This document shows, one piece after another, positions 2,844 to 33,219 of a stretch of DNA of 64,000 bases. A model generated the notes under the pieces. The model searched no databases, had not been told where the DNA came from, and worked only from the letters and a program-made list of their open reading frames with translations. The DNA comes from a virus. Position 1 is the stretch's first letter. Every line of letters starts with the position of its first letter. Both the position numbers and the translations under genes were made by a program. The DNA lies in the IMG/VR virus record IMGVR_UViG_3300030119_000590, positions 1 through 64,000 of that record; one strand, written 5' to 3'.

Positions 2844-4336
2844 TGAACTTTTTTATTTATCCATCTAAAGACACAACATTGTATAAGCAGAAAAAACTTC
2901 GCAAGTTAAATGCAGGTTCTGATGAGGTTATTGAACTAAAGAGTATACATGATGAAGCACTCGGGCATGATGTAGCAAGAATATTAATTGAGTTTGATTT
3001 AACAGGAATCAACGATGTAAAATCAGAATTGGTTGATGTAAAATACATTCTTAATTTAAAACTTATGCAATCAGATGAATTGCTTCCGTTGGATGTAATT
3101 GAAGTCTTCCCACTTAGAAAACCTTGGAAAGAAGGTAATGGTAGGTTTATACCATCATCTGACGCAAAGAAATTTAGTCCAGGAGCAAATTGGAAATATG
3201 CAGACGGTGAAAGTGATAAGTGGGTAGAGGGAAGTAATACCGACTCAACTGGTGGTGGCTTGTGGTATGACAAACAAATGTGCCTTGATTTATCTACGAC
3301 TCCATCTGAAATAGATTGTAAATTTAAGTTTACCAAAAACTTTTCAGACGTAAAAATTGATATTACCAGAATCGTAAAGTACTGGTTAGATGGAAGCATT
3401 GACAACAATGGGTTAATAATAAAATACAAAGACGAAGAACAAGATAACGCAGGAAATATAAAGTTTTATTCAAGTGATACGAATACAATTTATTATCCGT
3501 TTATACAAGTTTCATACAATGATTACTTTTTCAATCCATGTCAAAAAAGAAAAGTAAACAAATTAGTATGTCCAACTGCCGTTCAAGAAACAATAGCAGA
3601 GGTTTTTCCTACACCAACACCTACTCATCATATGTGTCCACCGTCAGGTTCAATAGAATCAGGAAGTTTGCATTCAGGAACTCTTGAATCTGGTAGTTTA
3701 TTCTCTGGTAGTCTACTTTCTGGTGTTATGGAATCAGGAAGTGCGTTTTCAGATGTAATTGTATATGGCTCTTTGGAGTCTGCCAATGTTACAACAAGTA
3801 ATATTTCTTCTGGTTCAATAGGGTCAGGAAGTTTAGAGTCAGGAACGATTGATTCCGTTGATTTGGCTGGTGTGGTTGTAACAAGTTGCATAAAAACAGA
3901 ACCATCCTCCGATACATCTAAATATTCATTTGACTTGATTGATGTAGACCCAACACTTCAACAAGTAATGGACGCAGATATAATACCACATATAAAAAGA
4001 ATTAAAAAAGAATACAGAACCTTATCAAGAGAAAGAATTTCGGTAGGCATTCGTTCAAAATACCCAACCAAAACATTTTCTTCAAAATCTAAATACGATT
4101 TAGACAATTATACACTTGAACCTATGAAGTATTCGGTGAGAGATGCAGAAACTGATGAAATCATAATTGACTTTAGTCATTACTCTAAAATAAGTTGCGA
4201 TGCGAGGGGTCATTATTTCAATTTTGATTTCACGTGTCTTGCAGTTGGTCGTATTTATAAGTTCTTAATATTGGTTGAATCTGAAGTTGGCCATGAGGTT
4301 CATGAGGATAAAAGAAGGTTTATTGTGAGGTCATAA
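2843..4336 (+). CDS. putative virion (baseplate-associated) protein with a Ser/Gly repeat insertion
   Basis: 497 aa with a GTG start overlapping the gp6 stop. N-terminal KDTTLY...RILIEFDL...DITRIVKYW..GSIDNNGLII resembles DNRLRE-type beta-sandwiches. Confidence 0.65.
   Translation: MNFFIYPSKDTTLYKQKKLRKLNAGSDEVIELKSIHDEALGHDVARILIEFDLTGINDVKSELVDVKYILNLKLMQSDELLPLDVIEVFPLRKPWKEGNGRFIPSSDAKKFSPGANWKYADGESDKWVEGSNTDSTGGGLWYDKQMCLDLSTTPSEIDCKFKFTKNFSDVKIDITRIVKYWLDGSIDNNGLIIKYKDEEQDNAGNIKFYSSDTNTIYYPFIQVSYNDYFFNPCQKRKVNKLVCPTAVQETIAEVFPTPTPTHHMCPPSGSIESGSLHSGTLESGSLFSGSLLSGVMESGSAFSDVIVYGSLESANVTTSNISSGSIGSGSLESGTIDSVDLAGVVVTSCIKTEPSSDTSKYSFDLIDVDPTLQQVMDADIIPHIKRIKKEYRTLSRERISVGIRSKYPTKTFSSKSKYDLDNYTLEPMKYSVRDAETDEIIIDFSHYSKISCDARGHYFNFDFTCLAVGRIYKFLILVESEVGHEVHEDKRRFIVRS
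3640..3860 (+). repeat. imperfect pentapeptide repeat (SGS[L/I]E-like) inside the CDS
   Basis: SGSIESGSLHSGTLESGSLFSGSLLSGVMESGSAFS...SSGSIGSGSLESGTIDS. Confidence 0.75.
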
Positions 4337-4942: not shown

Positions 4943-7900
4943 ATGGCAAATTATTTAAAGTATATTGACACCGAATCAAATACAGGAGACTTTACCAGAG
5001 CATATCCGGTTGAGTCAAGTGCCTTAGACTTGGCGTTCGAAAAAACATCTACCAAAACTACATTTGGTAAGTCATTCAAGGATGTAATAGAGTTTACAGT
5101 ATACGATTCCACAGGAAGAAATTTACTTGCCTGGACAATCATCGAGGGTCTTGAAAACTATACGACTAAAAATTTATATTATACAAATTACAATGATGAT
5201 ACAGTTACCGCATCGGTGCGAGTCCTTGATTCAGTATATCCCTCGGCAAATGGAAATATAATACTATCACCAACAGACCAATTAAAAAAGTTAAATTTCA
5301 CCACAGGTGCATATAGAATAGGATTTTCTTTTAGGAACGATATAATAGGATCTACTGAGTCGGAAAGCAAACTTATAGTCTCTGAAATATCTCCATCAAG
5401 AACCGAGATAAAAATTACACCAGAGTGCCTTAGAAACTCAACAAGACCACAAGATGCAGCTATAAATTTCGAGTATGACAATTTTATTAATAAAAGAATT
5501 GTTGTTTCGCACATATACCACGATGTCAGTTCTTTTTACAGAGACGATGTATCTTTTATACTTGATAATACTGGATTAGATTTTTCGGAGGATTTTAAAT
5601 CAACATTTGATGACTTTGAACAAAGTTACGAAAAAACAATAACTACGTATCTAGGAGTAGATATTAAGTCAATAAACCCAACTCATATTAATCAGTTTAT
5701 AAGTAATATATATTCTAATTACGAGAAGGTAACTAAGTTGTATAATAATGTAATACTAACAAATTATACAAGTTCATTTACTTCATCAGATTTTTACGAT
5801 GAATATCTTAAGTGTGCTGACTATATAATTTCAAAGCATACTAAATTGGCAACACTTTCAACTGACTCCGTTGAAGTAGAATTTTATAAGTCTGCATTTA
5901 TTCATTTTTATGATTTAGATGCGTTGTCGGGTATTTACGCAGATAGATTTGATAACTACTTTTCCAATGTTATAAATTTATCAAACAATCAAAGTTATCC
6001 AATACTAAAGCAAACTTTATCTAGTCAAAACGCAAACGATGCGGTAAAACAACAACCACTTGTGTTGAAATTATCAGAACCACTTCCATTTAGTGTAACG
6101 GTAGGCACTAGATTTCATTTGTCAAATGTGTCTAGTTCTGATGATATTATACAAAATATAATCGTAACCGAAGAGGTGGTTTCAACCACATATAAATTGA
6201 GAGGACCAAATAAAGTATCACTTTTAACTTCATCGTCTGGTACGAAACAATATACAAGTGAAGATCTTACACTTGGAAATGAAATTGAATCTGGAATATC
6301 TAACCATTTCAACAAATTGACATCGGGAACAGAATTATCTGTAGATTATTCTGAATTTTCAAATTATGTAAGATTCTCATCTGCTAAGAAGAAACTAGAT
6401 GCGTTTGTGTATAAGTTAACTCAAGTTTCAAAACTTAATAGAAAAAAAATAGAATTGGAAAATGAGATATACAATTTAAAAAAAAGAATTGCTAATGATA
6501 CCATTGGCAATGAAACTGGTGCAGATTCTTACACAATATTGCGTGAGTTTGACATTAAAAAGACAAATGAAAGTCTTTCGGAGATTATAGACTCATTCAC
6601 AGAATATGAAAAGTTTCTATTTTATACTGAAGATAATTTTGCTTGGCCAAGGTCAGAAAACTTGGTAGTTACGACCAACTCAACTCAAAAGTTTCAAACG
6701 GTTTTATATGAAGGTGTTTATTATGAGGACGGTGTATATAATGAACGACCACTTTATACGCATCAATCTAACGACTGGACTTTATATTGGGACGGAGCGG
6801 AGTATGGTTGGGTATTATCCGATGCAGGAACATCTAAAACGAATCATTGGATTTCAACAAGACCTGTAACAACAACAGACTCTTTTATTACAAGCAATGT
6901 TTTTGGAAATCAAACAATAACAAGAACAACAGATGCATCTATTGAAAAGTTGGCAAGTAGTTCTGAGTTTTCATCAGACGCAACACCAGATTATATGCCA
7001 AACTCGGATAATGTACCAACCGAAAGACCTTGGTTATCGTTTAGTATTTCATACGAACAAGTAATTCGAGGTATAAAAGGAACAGCCCGTTCACCAAGAT
7101 ACATTCCTGCTGATTTAAAAGTGTTTCAAAAAGACAAAGGCTATTTTTGGTATTTGGAACGAGCAAACGAAGCTGAGCAATATGATAAAACAAACGATGA
7201 TAGTCTTGGAAATAATATTCCTGAATTTTTAGTAAGAGACGATAGTAATCAAGATTTTGTTGATTTTCTAAATCTAGTTGGCAATCACTTTGATTTAATT
7301 TATACATACATCGCAAACATGGGTGCTTCACTTAAACCAAGAAACAATCCAAACAAAGGTGTTCCAAACGAATTAGTATGGTTTATTATGAACTCTCTCG
7401 GAGTAAGATTCAGTGGCCAGGATGATGCTGGAGATGATATGACTTCCGATTACCCTACTGGCGGTTTATCAATTAAGGATAGAAGAAATATAATATGGAG
7501 AAGGATTCTTAATAACTTACCCCACATTGTCAATACAATCGGAACTGAGCGTTCAATAAATGCACTACTTCGTTGTTATGGTGTACCAGACTATTTGTTT
7601 AAAGTAAAAGAATACGGAGGAGTTAAATACTCAACATCTGGTGCTTCGGATGAATCTATTTTTAGTTTCGATTCATTTGATTATAAACTGAATTTCACAC
7701 AAGATGACCAGTATATCTCTATTCCTTGGCATGGAGATTCCTATGAGGTCAGAACACTTGAATTTGAAACATCTTTAGACGATTCTCTTCGTGAAGAGAA
7801 TCTAAGTACCGAGTATGGTCTGTTAGAGTATAATATATCACCATCGGCCATTATTAAAGACCAGGAAAATGGAATAACTTCATCTGGATGGATTTATCAA

Positions 7901-26463: not shown

Positions 26464-26985
26464 ATGCAAAATAAATCCTATTGTTTAGGATTGGATATAA
26501 GTTCAACCGTTGTTGGTTATTGTGTATCTAGTTCAAAAAACGAAATTGTTGATGCGGGTTATATTGATATTCATAAATTAACAAGCATTAAAGAAAAAGC
26601 ACATAAAATTGCTCAGTATCTCGACTCAAGATCTATTGATCCTTCAATTATAATAGTTGAGGATTCATTGAGTGGATTTGGTGGAGGGAGAACCAGTCAA
26701 CAAACCATAGTAAAACTTGCAAAGTGTAATGCAGTTATAAGTTATGTTATTGAAGCATTGTATGAGGTTGATATAAATCACATTAACGTATCTACTTTAA
26801 GAAAAGCAGTTTTCGGTAAAAGTCGTGAAAAAGGTGTAGATAGCAAGACGTTTGTACGTGAACAACTTAAAAATAAGATTGATTTATCCAAGTTTATTGT
26901 CTATAATAGTAGAAATAATTATGATAAAAGGAACTACGATATGTTAGACGCAACGGTAGCATCGCTTTATCACTGGTATAAGTAA
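26464..26985 (+). CDS. ruvC: RuvC-like Holliday junction resolvase
   Basis: LGLDISSTVVGY, IIVED and DMLDA acidic catalytic motifs of the RNase H/RuvC fold. Confidence 0.8.
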   Translation: MQNKSYCLGLDISSTVVGYCVSSSKNEIVDAGYIDIHKLTSIKEKAHKIAQYLDSRSIDPSIIIVEDSLSGFGGGRTSQQTIVKLAKCNAVISYVIEALYEVDINHINVSTLRKAVFGKSREKGVDSKTFVREQLKNKIDLSKFIVYNSRNNYDKRNYDMLDATVASLYHWYK

Positions 26986-26987
26986 TT

Positions 26988-27914
26988 GTGGGCATTTCTG
27001 AGCAAAAGTTACTGACCTTACTTCAGAAGGTCTTGGGTGAAGGTAAAATCGTCTCTAAAGACGAAGCAATGTTTATATGCCCATTTTCACACCACCGAAA
27101 ACCAAAATTGGCTGTGAATCTATCTACGCAGAGGTGGCAGAGTTGGATTGATACAAATGCAAAAGGTCGTAGTATCTTTGCGTTATTCAAGAGGTTACAA
27201 GTTCCAAGCAATTACTTTGCCGAGTTATCAAAGATTGTAAAACTTCCGAAAAGCACTAAGTTGGTAGATGCAGAAGAGAAGTATGTGTCATTACCTTATG
27301 AGTTTAAAAGATTGACCGAAACTCACAAAGACTTTTCTTACACACAGGCAATAAACTATTTGAAGAATCGTGGAATTAAATCGTATGATATTGAACGATA
27401 CGACATAGGATATTGCTCTGATGGAGATTATTCAGGTAGAATTATAGTTCCATCATATGATCAAGATAATAAATTAAATTATTTTATTGCAAGAGATTTC
27501 ACAGGAAATGCTTATTTAAAATACAAAAATCCACCGGTCAGTAAAGATGTGGTGGTGTTTGAGAATCAAATAGATTACTCAGAACCTATTGTATTATGCG
27601 AAGGAGTATTCGACGCAATTGCTATACGGCGGAATGCAATTGCTCTTTTAGGTAAAAACATACCAAGTAAATTAAAAATTAAAATGATTGAAAACAAAGT
27701 TTCTGAAGTTTATGTGGTTCTTGACGAAGATGCCATTAAAAATGCAGTAGCAATTACAGAAACATTGTTGAATGAGGACATCAAAGTGCGATTCGTTAAA
27801 ATGGGAAACGAAGATGCCGCCGACGTTGGATTTCGAGGAATGGTGGAAAAACTTCGGAATACACCCATAATGGGTTTTGACGCATTGATGAAACAAAAGT
27901 TATGCATGAGTTAG
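26988..27914 (+). CDS. dnaG: DNA primase (degenerate Zn-binding domain plus TOPRIM)
   Basis: YLKNRGI, GRIIVP, KYKNP, LCEGVFDA and VLDEDA TOPRIM motifs. Confidence 0.88.
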   Translation: MGISEQKLLTLLQKVLGEGKIVSKDEAMFICPFSHHRKPKLAVNLSTQRWQSWIDTNAKGRSIFALFKRLQVPSNYFAELSKIVKLPKSTKLVDAEEKYVSLPYEFKRLTETHKDFSYTQAINYLKNRGIKSYDIERYDIGYCSDGDYSGRIIVPSYDQDNKLNYFIARDFTGNAYLKYKNPPVSKDVVVFENQIDYSEPIVLCEGVFDAIAIRRNAIALLGKNIPSKLKIKMIENKVSEVYVVLDEDAIKNAVAITETLLNEDIKVRFVKMGNEDAADVGFRGMVEKLRNTPIMGFDALMKQKLCMS

Positions 27915-28606
27915 ACACGAAGATAAAAAAGGTTGAAAAAATTTATCATGTATCAGATATTCACCTAAGAAACGTAAAACGTCACAAGGAATACCGAAGT
28001 GTATTTGAAAACTTTTACAAACAGCTAAAAGAAGATGCACTTGAAAACGCAATAATTTTTATTGGTGGGGATGTTGCTCATGCCAAAACAGAAATGAGTC
28101 CTGAACTGGTCGCGGAGATTGCAGATTTCTTTAATAAATGTGCAGAGATACACCCAACACTATTGATAGCAGGAAATCATGATTGTAATTTAAATAATCC
28201 AGATAGATTAGATGTATTGACTCCAATAGTTGATATGCTTGATAATGATAATCTGTTTTATTTAAGGGAAACAGGTGTGTATAAAATTGGTGATGTTGCA
28301 ATTAGTGTGTTTGGTATATTTGAAGACCCAAGTGAATATATTCGTGGAAAAGATATAACCGATAAGTCAATATCAACAAAGATTGCAGTATATCATGGCG
28401 CAATCAAACGAAGCAGAACAGACGTGGGTTACGTTATCGTTGGTGGTGATGTGCCTATGTATATGTTTGACGGATACGATATGGTAATGCTTGGGGATAT
28501 TCACAAGCATCAAATTTTACAAGAATATCATACTGAGGCATTGTTTGTACCTGAATCAAAAACAGATGAATATGTTCTTGATGGGTGGGAGGTCTGCGAT
28601 GACTAA
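27902..28606 (+). CDS. sbcD: SbcD/Mre11 (gp47-like) metallophosphoesterase, N-terminal fragment of a split gene
   Basis: HVSDIH, GGDVAH, AGNHD, YHG and LGDIHK motifs. The following YxGS motif is absent here and sits in the 29524 ORF. Confidence 0.85.
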   Translation: MHELDTKIKKVEKIYHVSDIHLRNVKRHKEYRSVFENFYKQLKEDALENAIIFIGGDVAHAKTEMSPELVAEIADFFNKCAEIHPTLLIAGNHDCNLNNPDRLDVLTPIVDMLDNDNLFYLRETGVYKIGDVAISVFGIFEDPSEYIRGKDITDKSISTKIAVYHGAIKRSRTDVGYVIVGGDVPMYMFDGYDMVMLGDIHKHQILQEYHTEALFVPESKTDEYVLDGWEVCDD

Positions 28607-29534
28607 TATCTTAATAAAGTGCAGAAATATTCACATAGGTGATGTGATTTTTTCAAGTAGTGTCGCAAAGAAACTGAAAGAAAAGAATCCAAATTGCATT
28701 GTTCACTATGACATCAATTATTTGCAACCTATGGAACTTCTTAATAATAACCCATATATTGATGGAGTTTATTACAAAGAATCGGCAAATATAGATTATG
28801 ATGTGGTGTATCAATTGATGAACGATGATGTATCTACATTAAGTCCATATGAATCTGCGGTTGCTCAATTTCAACGAATGTGTGGAATTGAAGATTACGA
28901 TGATACCTTCGAAGTTTTTACAAATCCTCAACTTGATTATTCTATAAAAAGAAGTATGGATGAACTGGTTAGCATAGGTGATTGGGATGATGACTTGGTA
29001 AAAATAGGATACCAAGTTGATTGGGATAGAAAAAGTTTTTTGTTCACGGAAGAAGAATATGAAAGAGCAGAGGATGGTGAAGACGGAACAGGATACGGAA
29101 GTGGAAAACGAAATGTATTTGATATAATCAATTGTATGGAAGTTTCTTCAAAGGTTATGTTGTTCGCACTTGGTCTTGAAGATAAGATTTCAAAGAACTA
29201 TCCGTGTTTAAATTCAACCAGCAAATTTTCGTTTACCGCAAGTTTAATGAAGAATTGTGATTATGTTATTGGGGGTGAAGGGTGTCTTACCAATGTATCA
29301 TCTGCACTGGGAACTAAAACGATAATTACGACTGATTATGTTTATCAAATGTTTGGTCCAAAAGGAATTCGTTGGCAACAAGAGGGTGGTGATTTAAACA
29401 ACTTGGAAACTCGCAGACCATTCCTAGGTCCCAATGCGTACTTTCCAAAAGGAGGCCACATAGAACTAAACCCGTTTTTAACAGACCTCCAAGTTGGAGA
29501 AGAAATTTTAAGAATAGCACTTGATGGAAATTAA
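28599..29534 (+). CDS. GT9 (heptosyltransferase-like) glycosyltransferase
   Basis: HIGDVIF...KLKEKNP...LLNNNPYID and LMKNCDYVIGGEG...SALGTKTI match the GT9 pattern. Start moved to ATG 28599 because of the GGGAGG RBS at 28587-28592. Confidence 0.75.
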   Translation: MTNILIKCRNIHIGDVIFSSSVAKKLKEKNPNCIVHYDINYLQPMELLNNNPYIDGVYYKESANIDYDVVYQLMNDDVSTLSPYESAVAQFQRMCGIEDYDDTFEVFTNPQLDYSIKRSMDELVSIGDWDDDLVKIGYQVDWDRKSFLFTEEEYERAEDGEDGTGYGSGKRNVFDIINCMEVSSKVMLFALGLEDKISKNYPCLNSTSKFSFTASLMKNCDYVIGGEGCLTNVSSALGTKTIITTDYVYQMFGPKGIRWQQEGGDLNNLETRRPFLGPNAYFPKGGHIELNPFLTDLQVGEEILRIALDGN

Positions 29535-32130
29535 AGAAAAATATGTAAAAATAAGAAGACTCAATCCTAGTAAACCTGTGGTAGTTTATTCGGGTAGTAT
29601 GATTCAACAAAATCACGGAGAACTTCCACGTGGTCATGGATATGTATTGTGGGATGTAAAAGAACGTAAACCAAACCATGTTGAAGTTAATAATGATTAT
29701 GGTTATTACACAATAACAGTTCGTGACGGAACGTGTGTAAGTGATTTAACTTTGTTGCCAAAGAAGGCAAGGTTACGAGTAAAGGTTTTTAATACAACTG
29801 CCGCCGAGACCAAAGAGATACTTGCAGATATACGAAAGCATACAAGTATCACAGACTTGAATGTTACACGATGTGATGCAATATCAGAGGCAAAGAAGTT
29901 TGATAGAGACAGTAAGTTTAATTTTGGTGATGTAACTCAAACATCCGTACAGAATGATTTAATAGAAGATTATCTTACTCGTAATTTTGTTGTAGATGAA
30001 GAGCAAATAAAAACTGCTCTTGATATCAATAAAGAGGTCAACGGAAAACTTGCAATCAAAGAAACTCTTCGTAATTGTATTTGGAAACCCAAGACATTTG
30101 AGTTCGGTAATATGTTCAGTTATGGAGACGGAAACATCATTGACTTCTCTAAAATGAAAAGTGTCATGGGATTGTTTGCCTCAAATGCATCCGGTAAAAG
30201 TTCTATTATGAGTGCTTTGAGTTTTTGTTTGTTTGATAAATGTGACAGAGCATTTAAGGCATCTCATGTACTTAATACAACTTGCTCTGATTTCAAATGC
30301 AAACTGAACTTTGAAATTGAGGGAGTTGATTATTTTATTGAACGGGTTGCAACGACTAAAAAGAACGGAGATGTTACGGTATCAGTTGAGTTTTGGAAAG
30401 TAGACGAAAATGGAAATACTCTTTCTTTGAATGGAGAAATGCGTTCAGGAACCAATGCAATTATCCGTGATCATGTAGGTTCGTATGATGACTTTGTTCT
30501 TACTACACTTAGTTTACAGAACAACAATTCCATTTTTATAGATAAAAGTCAAAGTGAACGAAAAGACCTTCTTGCACAATTCATGGGAATTGATATTTTT
30601 GATAGATTGCACTCAACTGCATCTGAAGACATCAAAGAAGTTAACGCATTGCTCAAACGATTCAACCGAGAGGATTTTAGTGAGATTCTCGCAGACAACC
30701 AAAAGAATTTGGACAATAAAGAATCAGAGTATAATGCTCAACAGAAATTAACTGAAGGTTTTGTTACAAAACAACGAACTCTGAATGAGAAACTTGTTAA
30801 GATAAATTCCGAGTATAAAACGTGTTCAACCGAAGAACAAGATTTGGATTTGGATGAACTTGAGTTTGAGCAGAAAAATCTACAGGAACGGTTGAATACT
30901 GCAAAATCTACAAGAGACAACACTTCCAAGGAAAAGCAACAATTAACATCTAAACGAAAAGACCGTAAGAACTTGGTTACCACACATGAAAAGAATGAAG
31001 TAGAGTCTGAACGAGAACGAGTAGAGGAATTGCAGAAGAAACTCGTAGTGGTAGACAAAGACCTTGCTGTTTTAAGAACATCTGTAAACGCAAAACTAGA
31101 TAAGTTAAAGCATTTCAAAGACCATGAATATGATCCTGAGTGTGAGTATTGTGTGAAGAATGCAAAAAATATTATAGAATCAAAAGACGAAACACGTAAA
31201 GCACTAGACAAAGATAAAGGAGAAGCAAACAAGTTGGTGGAACTTAGAAACGAATATACCGAGAAACTAGGTGATGCGGATAAAATAGAAACTCAATATA
31301 GAGAACTTAGGGATGCAAGGAATGACGTTAGACAATTGTCTTCTGAGATAAATGAAAAGGATAGTAAGATACTTGCATTGTCTTCTATGATAGAGTCGTT
31401 GGAAAAGGATATAAAAATAAATGCCGATAAGATTGTTATGTACCACGAATGTCGTGATACCATATTGTTCAATAAAGAACTTAAAAAGTCTGCGTCTTTG
31501 ATCAAAGACGAATTAAAAGTAGTTGATTCTGATGTTGAACGAGAAACTGCTAAGTCTCAAGTTCTGTTTGGTGAAGTAAAGGTGTTTGAAAAAGAACACG
31601 ATGATATTCTGAAATCCATTGAAGAGGCAAAGGGATTTGAACGAAAGAAACGTGGTTATGAATTATACTTGGATGCGGTTAAACGAGATGGTATTCCGTA
31701 TGAACTGATTTCCCAAACAATTCCGAGTATTGAAAGTGAAGTGAATAATATTCTATCACAAATCGTTGATTTTACTATGCAACTTGAAATGGATGGAAAG
31801 CACATTTACTCTAAGATTGTATACGAAGATAGACATTGGCCACTTGAAATGTGTAGTGGAATGGAGCGATTCATTAGCAGTATTGCTATGCGAGTTGCAC
31901 TCATAAACGTATCAAGTCTACCAAGGTCTAATTTCTTGGCGATTGATGAAGGTTGGGGTTCGTTGGATGGAGACAATATTAATAGTGTATTTAATCTATT
32001 TACGTATCTAAAAGGTCAGTTTGAGTTTATTCTTGTAATTAGTCACCTTGACATTATGCGTGATATGGTTGACGAGATTATAGAAATTCAATCTAAAGAT
32101 GGTTGTAGTCGGATAAAATATGGGGTATAA
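29524..32130 (+). CDS. sbcC: C-terminal part of the SbcD nuclease fused to an SbcC/Rad50 (gp46-like) ATPase
   Basis: Starts with VVYSGSMIQQNHGE..HGYVLWD (SbcD C-terminal motifs); then Walker A ASNASGKSS, coiled coil with CEYC hook, CSGMERF signature, LAIDEGWGSLD Walker B and ISH. Confidence 0.88.
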   Translation: MEIKEKYVKIRRLNPSKPVVVYSGSMIQQNHGELPRGHGYVLWDVKERKPNHVEVNNDYGYYTITVRDGTCVSDLTLLPKKARLRVKVFNTTAAETKEILADIRKHTSITDLNVTRCDAISEAKKFDRDSKFNFGDVTQTSVQNDLIEDYLTRNFVVDEEQIKTALDINKEVNGKLAIKETLRNCIWKPKTFEFGNMFSYGDGNIIDFSKMKSVMGLFASNASGKSSIMSALSFCLFDKCDRAFKASHVLNTTCSDFKCKLNFEIEGVDYFIERVATTKKNGDVTVSVEFWKVDENGNTLSLNGEMRSGTNAIIRDHVGSYDDFVLTTLSLQNNNSIFIDKSQSERKDLLAQFMGIDIFDRLHSTASEDIKEVNALLKRFNREDFSEILADNQKNLDNKESEYNAQQKLTEGFVTKQRTLNEKLVKINSEYKTCSTEEQDLDLDELEFEQKNLQERLNTAKSTRDNTSKEKQQLTSKRKDRKNLVTTHEKNEVESERERVEELQKKLVVVDKDLAVLRTSVNAKLDKLKHFKDHEYDPECEYCVKNAKNIIESKDETRKALDKDKGEANKLVELRNEYTEKLGDADKIETQYRELRDARNDVRQLSSEINEKDSKILALSSMIESLEKDIKINADKIVMYHECRDTILFNKELKKSASLIKDELKVVDSDVERETAKSQVLFGEVKVFEKEHDDILKSIEEAKGFERKKRGYELYLDAVKRDGIPYELISQTIPSIESEVNNILSQIVDFTMQLEMDGKHIYSKIVYEDRHWPLEMCSGMERFISSIAMRVALINVSSLPRSNFLAIDEGWGSLDGDNINSVFNLFTYLKGQFEFILVISHLDIMRDMVDEIIEIQSKDGCSRIKYGV

Positions 32131-32163
32131 ACATATTTAGATATATATTTATTGTATCTAAGG

Positions 32164-33219
32164 ATGTTTGTATCTATGGAAAATTCCGACAAAAAACAAG
32201 AACTTGAAGAAACACTAATTCAGGCCGGTCTTCGTAAGGGGTATTTTACTCTTGTTGAAGGTGTATATGATCCTGGTATTTTAAAGGCAGTATTTCTTGC
32301 TGGAGGTCCTGGTTCTGGTAAATCGGCAGTAATAGATACCGTGTTTAATGTTGCTCCTGAATCAAAGTCTTTGTCATCCTCTGGATTAAAAATCGTGAAT
32401 AGTGATAGTTCATTTGAACATTTACTCAAGAAAGCAGGTCATAGTTTGGACTTGGGTTCGTTGGATGACGAGGTGTTTAATCAAATTACAAGCAGTGACC
32501 CAAACTCAATTCGTTCCAAAGCAAAGCAAATAATGTTACAACAATTTTCTCATTACAAAAACGGAAGACTTGGTGTTATTATTGACGGAACGGGTGATGA
32601 TTATGCCAAAATATCCAAGCAAAAGAAAGAGTTAGAAAAACTTGGTTATGATTGCTATATGGTGTTTGTTAATACTTCACTTGAAGTTGCTCAAGAAAGA
32701 AACGCATTTCGTGCAAGAAAACTTCCAAAAAAACTAGTGAAAGCAGTTTGGACTGATGTGCAAAAAAACATGGGTAGATTTCAAAGTTCATTCAAACAAA
32801 ACTTTACCATCATAGATAACTCAGAAGATTTAAGAAGTAAAACGAAACCAGGAAAACTTGATCTTGCTCCTTTTATATTAAAAGCAACCGCAAAGTTTAT
32901 TGCAAAACCAATTCGTAATCCAATTGGAAAAGAGTGGATTAAGTTGATGATGAAGCACGACAATATGTCAAAGAGTGGAGATCTCAAGAGTCGCATGAAC
33001 GAAGACCTTGATATGGAGTTAATGGAAGATGTAGTGCTTCCAATGGACTTGGAACGACATTTAAGTCGTTCTATTTATGTAATCAATAAGTTTAATTTAA
33101 ATGAACGAAGAAATCTTGCAGTCCTTGCTCGTATAGTTGATAGTTTACAATTAAATAAAAACCAACTCAACAAATACTTCCACCAAATTAGAACTTTAAA
33201 ATTCAAAGGAGAGCAATAG
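32164..33219 (+). CDS. P-loop kinase (AAA_33 / zeta-toxin / PNK-like)
   Basis: KAVFLAGGPGSGKS, IVNSD, IIDGTG, VFVNTSLEVAQERN. Exact start uncertain (32152, 32164 or 32176). Confidence 0.8.
   Translation: MFVSMENSDKKQELEETLIQAGLRKGYFTLVEGVYDPGILKAVFLAGGPGSGKSAVIDTVFNVAPESKSLSSSGLKIVNSDSSFEHLLKKAGHSLDLGSLDDEVFNQITSSDPNSIRSKAKQIMLQQFSHYKNGRLGVIIDGTGDDYAKISKQKKELEKLGYDCYMVFVNTSLEVAQERNAFRARKLPKKLVKAVWTDVQKNMGRFQSSFKQNFTIIDNSEDLRSKTKPGKLDLAPFILKATAKFIAKPIRNPIGKEWIKLMMKHDNMSKSGDLKSRMNEDLDMELMEDVVLPMDLERHLSRSIYVINKFNLNERRNLAVLARIVDSLQLNKNQLNKYFHQIRTLKFKGEQ

Follow-up and report, generated by a model that had tools for sequence, protein, structure and literature searches.

A fractured Mre11-Rad50 nuclease gene with oppositely charged extensions and a predicted glycosyltransferase-like gene at the break in a marine phage

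The split locus and its genes

The window is a stretch of 64,000 nucleotides (positions 1 to 64,000 of IMG/VR virus record IMGVR_UViG_3300030119_000590, which has 77,352 bases and is rated 39% complete). It comes from an uncultured marine phage, and its clade consists of large aquatic phages. Positions 27902–32130 hold three overlapping plus-strand genes, each in a different frame. The first and the third carry the two halves of a Mre11/SbcD nuclease, the third also a Rad50/SbcC ATPase, and the gene between them has a predicted glycosyltransferase-like fold. The original prediction, made from the letters alone, had placed phosphoesterase motifs I–V followed by a stop in the open reading frame 27902–28606, the remaining SbcD elements in a second frame that starts at 29524 and is fused to the SbcC ATPase, and extra residues at both ends of the break. 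The first of these is borne out by the sequence and by Pfam and PHROG matches, the second by a phrog_77 match and motifs, and the third by the absence of these residues from contiguous relatives.

The N-half (27902–28606) encodes 234 amino acids of Mre11/SbcD nuclease domain. Its motifs are DIH (residues 19–21), GD (56–57), GNHD (91–94), YHG (164–166, with H165) and GDIHK (198–202); motif V is GDxH and not GHxH. It carries all the metal ligands, and the metal-ligand motifs are invariant in an alignment of 35 sequences. The match to Pfam Metallophos is 36.3 bits (cut-off 21.5) and that to phrog_100, "SbcD-like", has an E value of 1.7e-15. Mre11/SbcD chains are the sole PDB matches of its alignment profile, and there is only one Metallophos gene in the whole record. 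The N-half ends 32 residues past GDIHK with a stop codon at 28604–28606, and the new start at 29524 is in another frame. A nuclease domain in a single polypeptide, as expected of Mre11/SbcD, is not found in the window, which is the anomaly itself and no argument against Mre11/SbcD homology. A manganese-dependent exo/endonuclease activity would be expected of such an enzyme.

The C-half (29524–32130; a TTG at 29521 is an alternative start) begins with a basic head of 16 residues (29524–29571, net charge +3, isoelectric point 10.0). The final phosphoesterase strands and the capping domain follow at 29572–30080, as placed by alignment with contiguous relatives; YSGS, then QQNHGE and then HGY are found in residues 22–40 of the reading frame. 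The remainder (30081–32130) is the Rad50/SbcC ATPase with its coiled coil. Residues 157–867 match phrog_77 with an E value of 1.1e-46; weak matches to Pfam SMC_N and SbcC_Walker_B fall below the cut-offs. The marks of a Rad50/SbcC protein are present, i.e., a P-loop (30184–30201, residue 221), a coiled coil with a CxxC hook (CEYC, 31141–31152, residue 540) and a C-terminal signature/Walker B. One clade member (L112, IMGVR_UViG_3300028829_005743) has its C-half match in two pieces, query residues 1–771 and 774–866, with a frame shift at 7181–7183, and its reading frame stops 752 residues past the YSGS motif compared with 845 in relatives. This may represent a frameshift or a sequencing error.

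The N-half ends in an acidic tail, the 25 residues after the conserved LQEY (28529–28603, net charge -7, isoelectric point 4.1). The window thus has two oppositely charged extensions that are new, as both are absent in contiguous relatives lacking an insert at the hairpin that follows motif V.

The gene between the halves, here called the cargo gene (28599–29534, 311 amino acids), overlaps the N-half stop by 8 nucleotides and the C-half start by 11 nucleotides. Its GGGAGG Shine-Dalgarno sequence (28587–28592) lies within the tail codons, 6 nucleotides before the ATG at 28599. It had been described as a complete GT9 gene that overlaps both halves and has its own GGGAGG ribosome-binding site. 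The gene, the site and the overlaps stand, but the GT9 family call does not, as no Pfam threshold is reached and the call has the fold as its basis. A comparison of the cargo protein with Pfam passes for no family (DUF354 has an E value of 0.045), a comparison with PHROG gives no match and neither does a tblastn search of phage records. The AlphaFold (AF2) model of the protein has a mean predicted local distance difference test value (pLDDT) of 85.8 and a predicted template modelling score of 0.86, and it displays the two Rossmann domains of a GT-B fold. The top Foldseek matches are GT9 enzymes, 3tov (5.7e-10), 1psw (WaaF, 2.7e-8) and 2gt1 (WaaC, 9.4e-7), with template modelling (TM) scores of 0.50–0.58. 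The cargo is filed as a protein with a predicted GT9-like GT-B fold rather than as a GT9 member, because the fold agrees with GT9 and the sequence models do not. A reading of the cargo as a new endonuclease was dropped, as the fold is GT-B and not a nuclease fold.

The order of primase, N-half, cargo, C-half and kinase is repeated in 36 related viral loci, and the split is kept over at least 26 distinct loci of the clade, down to about 66% identity. The stretch is also found in marine metagenomes of eight studies; the public runs listed as carrying it include no RNA run. One contig from an independent 2024 run covers positions 27789–29609 with about 97% identity and no indels, and contigs from two further runs bridge each junction. 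The three-gene arrangement is not a chance pattern of reading frames, because the same gene order is present in the 36 viral loci and in independent marine contigs. A misassembly had been named in advance as a finding that would overturn the split; independent marine assemblies that span both junctions show otherwise. Joints at 28197, with 23-letter sides at the conserved GNHD motif, were taken as contigs of other organisms. A promoter and terminator scan found no plus-strand terminator between the three genes, and the sites it gave are no more numerous than in shuffled sequences.

The gene immediately upstream, which overlaps the N-half start, encodes a DnaG-like primase (26988–27914, plus strand; Pfam DNAG_N and Toprim). 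It is the conserved upstream neighbour in Microcystis phage Mel-JY01, in the huge phage LR756508 and in all related loci. Directly downstream is a Zeta-toxin/AAA_33-type P-loop kinase (32152–33219, plus strand; Pfam Zeta_toxin, E value 6.3e-10) that is syntenic throughout the clade with 67–86% identity. Upstream of the primase is a reading frame of 173 amino acids (26464–26985, plus strand) that has the same position in related loci L003–L009. It has no Pfam family, and its N-terminus may resemble the first motif of RuvC-like resolvases. In Mel-JY01 (locus L001), an annotated GIY-YIG gene (3247–3759) is just upstream of the primase, and the SbcDC gene is contiguous there. Two other proteins, P0132 (551 amino acids) and P0188 (545 amino acids), have an N-half ending with the tail at residues ~400–547; these look like primase/N-half fusions, or gene calls that run through the overlap of the two genes.

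Contiguous relatives, other split lineages and cargo exchange

A scan of viral contigs gave more than 570 relatives, and 80 loci were kept for comparison. Most relatives encode one contiguous Mre11/SbcD-Rad50/SbcC chain of about 1050 amino acids, e.g., the single gene of 1066 amino acids after the primase in Mel-JY01. All but a few of the 80 loci are contiguous, with 15–22 residues from GDIHK to the YxGS strand. A large sister group has GDIHK, xQxLQEY, five residues and then KPxxVYxGS. By this spacing, the N-half of the window is about 25 residues longer at its end and the C-half 16 residues longer at its beginning, and the gene is broken at one fixed point where that of relatives is contiguous.

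Viral and metagenome contigs were also searched with a DNA pattern made from the tail, EY-x2-E-x3-[VI]-x-E-x5-Y-x3-GW. An alignment of homologues had been proposed as a check on the split, and the unsplit, split-without-cargo and split-with-other-cargo forms looked for are all found. The huge phage LR756508 has the same split with a tail and a head homologous to those of the window, and an unrelated cargo of 305 amino acids with zinc-ribbon repeats and a TnsA-like nuclease domain. A TnsA-like gene is in the gap of L002 and L324, a Vsr/DUF559-like gene of 103–127 amino acids in L279 and L286, and a gene with both a zinc ribbon and a Vsr-like part in L318 and L339; the related zinc-ribbon gene of L335 lacks the Vsr-like C-terminus. 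The gap of L336 holds a reading frame of 67 amino acids (653–856) that is a remnant of the L279 Vsr-like gene, with 87% identity to its C-terminal 39 residues. By sequence, it appears to be what is left of a decayed endonuclease gene, with an intact half on either side. The gap is empty in L038, L277 and L297 (69–173 nucleotides), and the halves abut in L281 and overlap in L278. Read together, the gaps form a series of invasion, decay and loss as expected for a homing-endonuclease gene.

A free-standing homing-endonuclease gene is not present in the window, but is found in L002, L279, L286, L318, L324, L335 and L339. The break had been proposed as a safe landing site for cargo genes. It does hold a non-endonuclease cargo here, but elsewhere it has endonuclease genes or nothing, so it looks like an endonuclease cassette site first, with the glycosyltransferase as a lineage-specific second tenant.

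The extensions of the split lineages have common properties. In the ten lineages tested, the tail is always acidic (net charge -2 to -10) and the head always basic (+1 to +5). Their length, charge pattern and about eight positions are kept, though the cores are only about 40–45% identical across lineages. Between L038 and L339 the tail is 77% identical and the core 38%, the tail figure being inflated by positions that are fixed in the search pattern; at the non-fixed positions 9 of 14 are identical, which is suggestive only.

Unbroken counterparts of the extensions are also present. A search of 1.84 billion representatives with the N-half gave about 94 long matches, seven of which are contiguous proteins of 1083–1101 amino acids with an in-frame insert of 36–50 residues exactly at the break position. 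The match to the N-half extends through the tail in P0128, P0166, P0175 and P0179. Several of the contiguous insert proteins have a tail-like part that ends with G and an aromatic residue, then about 8–12 residues and a head-like strand. In such chains, tail and head stand joined as one small domain. P0166, which is unbroken, is the sister of the split L002 with 99% support, and its head-like strand closely resembles that of L002. The unit may have originated from the unbroken forms, or these may be re-fusions that followed the loss of the endonuclease. Three contiguous SbcDC proteins (P0218, P0150 and P0217) have inserts of 36–48 residues at the same hairpin with no obvious resemblance to tail or head. 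The hairpin tip may be a general insertion hot spot.

The contiguous protein P0139 (1053 amino acids), which has a short loop, aligns with the split L277 at 86% identity over the N-half and 89% over the C-half; the break is exactly where the alignment stops. The core of the L277 group has an identity of about 0.70 to contiguous sisters versus 0.41–0.46 to other split lineages, on both sides of the break, and the upstream primase agrees with this pattern. Therefore the whole unit was either gained by transfer or lost precisely. In approximately unbiased (AU) tests, a single origin is not rejected for six split rows (p 0.09) but is rejected for ten (p 0.0036); with 15 split rows, the starred branches alone force one change only. 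The deep SbcDC tree is weak, and the close pair P0139/L277 is the firmer evidence.

Homologues of the cargo with at least 49% identity are always inside the split gene; those with 41% or less are free-standing in other phages, where they adjoin GT7-like transferases, FkbM methyltransferases and a KAS III. The flanks of three free-standing homologues (L118, L135 and L150) are phage glycan-type clusters that hold GT7-like transferases, a Methyltransf_24-GT7 fusion, an FkbM methyltransferase, a KAS III-like enzyme and a Polysacc_synt_C/cupin protein. Within split genes, a comparison of cargo identities with flank identities gives r = 0.24. One pair has flanks that are 92% identical with a cargo of 52% identity; between the window and L086 the cargo is 80% identical and the flanks are 70% identical. 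In AU tests the cargo data and the flank data each reject the clades of the other (p 5e-4 and 1e-40). The cargo and flank trees thus conflict, and the cassette has therefore been exchanged between related phages, which would have occurred most simply via homologous recombination in the conserved nuclease halves.

Selection, structural models and readings of the break

The ratio of nonsynonymous to synonymous substitution rates (dN/dS) was determined with the pooled Nei-Gojobori method from 47 unsaturated pairs in the clade of the window. It is 0.08 for the N core, 0.23 for the acidic tail, 0.18 for the basic head, 0.06 for the C nuclease part and 0.10 for the ATPase. The glycosyltransferase-like cargo has a dN/dS of 0.11. 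Both halves and both extensions are maintained by purifying selection, and so is the cargo gene. The split Mre11-Rad50 is real and appears to be functional; it is not a decaying gene.

The N-half was co-folded with residues 1–186 of the C-half, with custom alignments, in three runs and with three controls, as had been suggested in the original prediction. The score is 0.90 in the three runs and 0.00 in the best control; in the calibration, 58 of 80 solved complexes and 2 of 110 mismatched pairs reach the 0.90 mark. The runs share at least 89% of contacts, and the partner pLDDT is at least 73. The pairs of lowest error are core strands, N residues 12–16 with C residues 40–45 and N 195–197 with C 19–22. 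The confident interface includes tail residues 203–219, 221, 224–225, 228–232 and 234 and head residues 5–18. This result is taken as a sign of likeness and compatibility of the halves, not of binding, because halves of a Mre11-like fold can pass from the memory of solved structures. A need of the extensions for activity or assembly has indirect support from the dN/dS values of 0.18–0.23 and from their predicted place at the interface.

A single-chain model was made of the relative L038, in which the spacer is in frame and was read through with table 6; the linker so formed is artificial and a modelling device. The alignment used (A10) gives no support to the tail, and partial-row alignments (A6–A9), where tails or heads are misplaced, were excluded. 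The model has a pLDDT of 81. The tail shows a strand (203–210), a helix (211–219) and a short strand at pLDDT 80–83, and the head is a strand (255–262) that continues into a core strand. All top Foldseek matches in the PDB are Mre11/SbcD structures (3tho at 7.9e-10, 7dog, 4nzv and 6s6v), so that a Mre11-type nuclease with its capping fold is found in this relative. The model suggests that both arms of the native hairpin behind motif V have been extended, with the cut in the chain at the hairpin tip.

The probable explanation is that the locus encodes a fractured Mre11-Rad50 whose charge-complementary extensions serve its reassembly, and that the slot of an endonuclease gene has been taken by an exchanged GT9-like gene. 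The break lies in the turn of the beta-hairpin after phosphoesterase motif V and, together with the extensions, would have come as, or with, a homing-endonuclease cassette. A single transcript, in which stop and start codons overlap, would give two separately translated proteins, and the halves would rejoin non-covalently. Tail and head would prolong both arms of the native hairpin as a beta-ribbon of complementary charge, with a short helix as its cap. The GT9-like gene would have taken over the endonuclease slot in the clade of the window and, as a functional gene, would be exchanged between related phages through homologous recombination in which the conserved nuclease halves act as homology arms. 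The original prediction had proposed that the extensions form a small split "clip" domain, and this idea holds up in that the charges are opposite, the extensions are under purifying selection and placed at the interface, and a joined mini-domain is present in some single chains.

Several points weigh against this explanation. The separate translation and the reassembly of the halves are steps that we infer, and the take-over of the endonuclease slot is deduced from other split lineages; no remnant of an endonuclease is visible in any locus of the glycosyltransferase clade. The tail homology between this clade and the other lineages consists of about eight shared positions and equal length, the identity elsewhere being about 0–0.2. 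A pass in the co-fold is expected for any two halves of a Mre11 fold and does not imply a need for the extensions. By analogy with phage Aeh1 NrdA, whose tails are dispensable for fragment binding, a "clip" may be the wrong picture. The sugar-transferase function of the cargo is a prediction from its fold.

A wider claim, for which the case is tentative and somewhat short of even, is that the order acidic tail, stop, (cargo), start and basic head represents a portable, self-healing cassette for splitting genes. Its ends would be the two halves of a small clasp domain that offsets the break made by the cassette, and it would be a third route beside introns and inteins. Such a cassette would move among divergent SbcDC alleles and would have been domesticated in the marine clade as an exchangeable glycosyltransferase slot.

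An alternative that is less likely, but deserves consideration, is that the extensions go back to a mini-domain long present on the surface of some single-chain SbcDC proteins. The gene would then have broken in a distal loop without any mobile cassette, and the patchy distribution would result from repeated loss or recombination. The loop of a pre-existing domain is a tolerant site for a break, and the unbroken inserts of 36–50 residues at exactly this place in seven long representatives fit this reading, as does the pairing of the unbroken P0166 with the split L002. However, the unbroken forms are scattered on the tree, with 6 changes for 7 rows, and could equally be re-fusions after endonuclease loss. 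In P0139 and L277 the whole unit is present or absent between alleles that are 86–89% identical, and a single clade of the split forms fails the AU test (p 0.0036).

It is improbable that tail and head are passive by-products, i.e., a read-through to the first stop and a start supplied by the insert, with the halves joined via the ordinary interior of Mre11. The lowest-error contacts of the co-fold would agree with this, as they are in core strands and not in the extensions, and the rate of evolution is two to three times higher in the extensions than in the cores. Yet their dN/dS of 0.18–0.23 is far below 1, and their length, charge pattern and about eight positions are kept across cores of ~40–45% identity. 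The tail folds at pLDDT 80–83 without alignment support, and comparable tails are essential in Aeh1 NrdA (PMC3045599).

The joining of the halves into a single chain by RNA splicing, protein splicing or ribosomal bypass is very improbable. The exclusion of an intein and an intron in the original prediction agrees with the present results, where a scan of positions 27500–30500 gives no Rfam family at E <= 1, the junctions have no intein blocks and the insert is filled by a conserved gene. The three reading frames fill the DNA in three frames, and the cargo has a ribosome-binding site of its own and is conserved (dN/dS 0.11). The halves overlap in L278 and abut in L281, and they have separate starts in both. 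A split intein was ruled out, as the extensions are too short, with a total of 41 residues, and have no intein blocks, no nucleophile and no HN at the junctions. Ribosomal bypass was ruled out in L038, which has its own AAAGAGG site and ATG.

The least probable reading is that of a dead nuclease that decays after a gene insertion, which had been named at the outset as a refuting case with dN/dS near 1: a cut through the middle of a domain is how a pseudogene typically looks, but dN/dS is 0.06–0.10 in both halves, the metal-ligand motifs are invariant and the split persists in the clade.

Meaning and comparison with known systems

The family represents a natural series within one enzyme that has many solved structures. 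Its states are contiguous, contiguous with the mini-domain, split and empty, split with an endonuclease gene that is whole or decayed, and split with a non-selfish cargo; the window supplies the last of these. The slot of a selfish element may thus be reusable by a phage for an ordinary selected gene, which is then shuffled between relatives through recombination in the conserved halves of the essential gene around it. The engineering of split proteins may also profit from the short clasp peptides. A review of T4 mobile elements names "how the split polypeptides assemble" as an open question (PMC2988022).

The closest known locus is the "SbcD-like" gene from Lake Gatun that is fractured by a Vsr-like open reading frame and is intein-less (Dassa et al. 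2009, Nucleic Acids Res 37:2560, PMC2677866). It has 25 extra C-terminal and 9 extra N-terminal residues that are absent in contiguous proteins. The enzyme family is the same as in the window, and there are likewise two reading frames with a free-standing gene between them and no intein. The extension lengths match those of lineages such as L038, L277 and L279. The cargo is different, a Vsr-like putative homing endonuclease versus the GT9-like gene. The published case is one locus, whereas the present clade comprises dozens, with a head of 16 residues, an exchange of cargo and a comparison with contiguous and unbroken-insert forms.

In phage Aeh1, the essential DNA-metabolism gene of NrdA is split by a free-standing gene in the order NrdA-a, mobE and NrdA-b, and the functional, oppositely charged tails are new and absent in unsplit homologues (Crona et al. 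2011, Nucleic Acids Res 39:1381, PMC3045599). Restoration without RNA or protein splicing was proposed there as well. In the proposal of these authors, the endonuclease brings such tails with it, and the mechanism could be a general one; the tails are essential for the dimerisation of heterodimers and not for fragment binding. The enzyme is a different one and the polarity is reversed, the C-terminal tail being basic and the N-terminal tail acidic in Aeh1. The cargo in Aeh1 is an HNH endonuclease gene and the tails were examined experimentally, whereas those of the window are known from sequence and models.

In one phage, gene 43 is interrupted by an endonuclease gene, and in a relative the two parts are separated by nothing but an untranslated spacer. 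This is similar to the filled and empty gaps described here, and the overlapping stop and start codons likewise suggest translational coupling. The case differs in the host genes, and a non-endonuclease cargo was not reported there. Split inteins in fractured phage genes (Dassa et al. 2009) have a similar layout of N-part, free-standing endonuclease gene and C-part, and their two end pieces are also electrostatically complementary. The extensions in the window differ in that they total about 41 residues; they cannot splice because they have no intein blocks, no Cys or Ser at the N-junction and no HN with a nucleophile at the C-junction.

A split SbcD-like locus and tails that function in assembly are thus of a kind already published (Dassa et al. 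2009; Crona et al. 2011). A word search of the papers available found no report of a non-endonuclease cargo in such a slot. What is new in comparison with these systems is the predicted glycosyltransferase as a non-endonuclease tenant, the purifying selection on it, the fact that phages exchange it, and the wide range of forms that could be compared.

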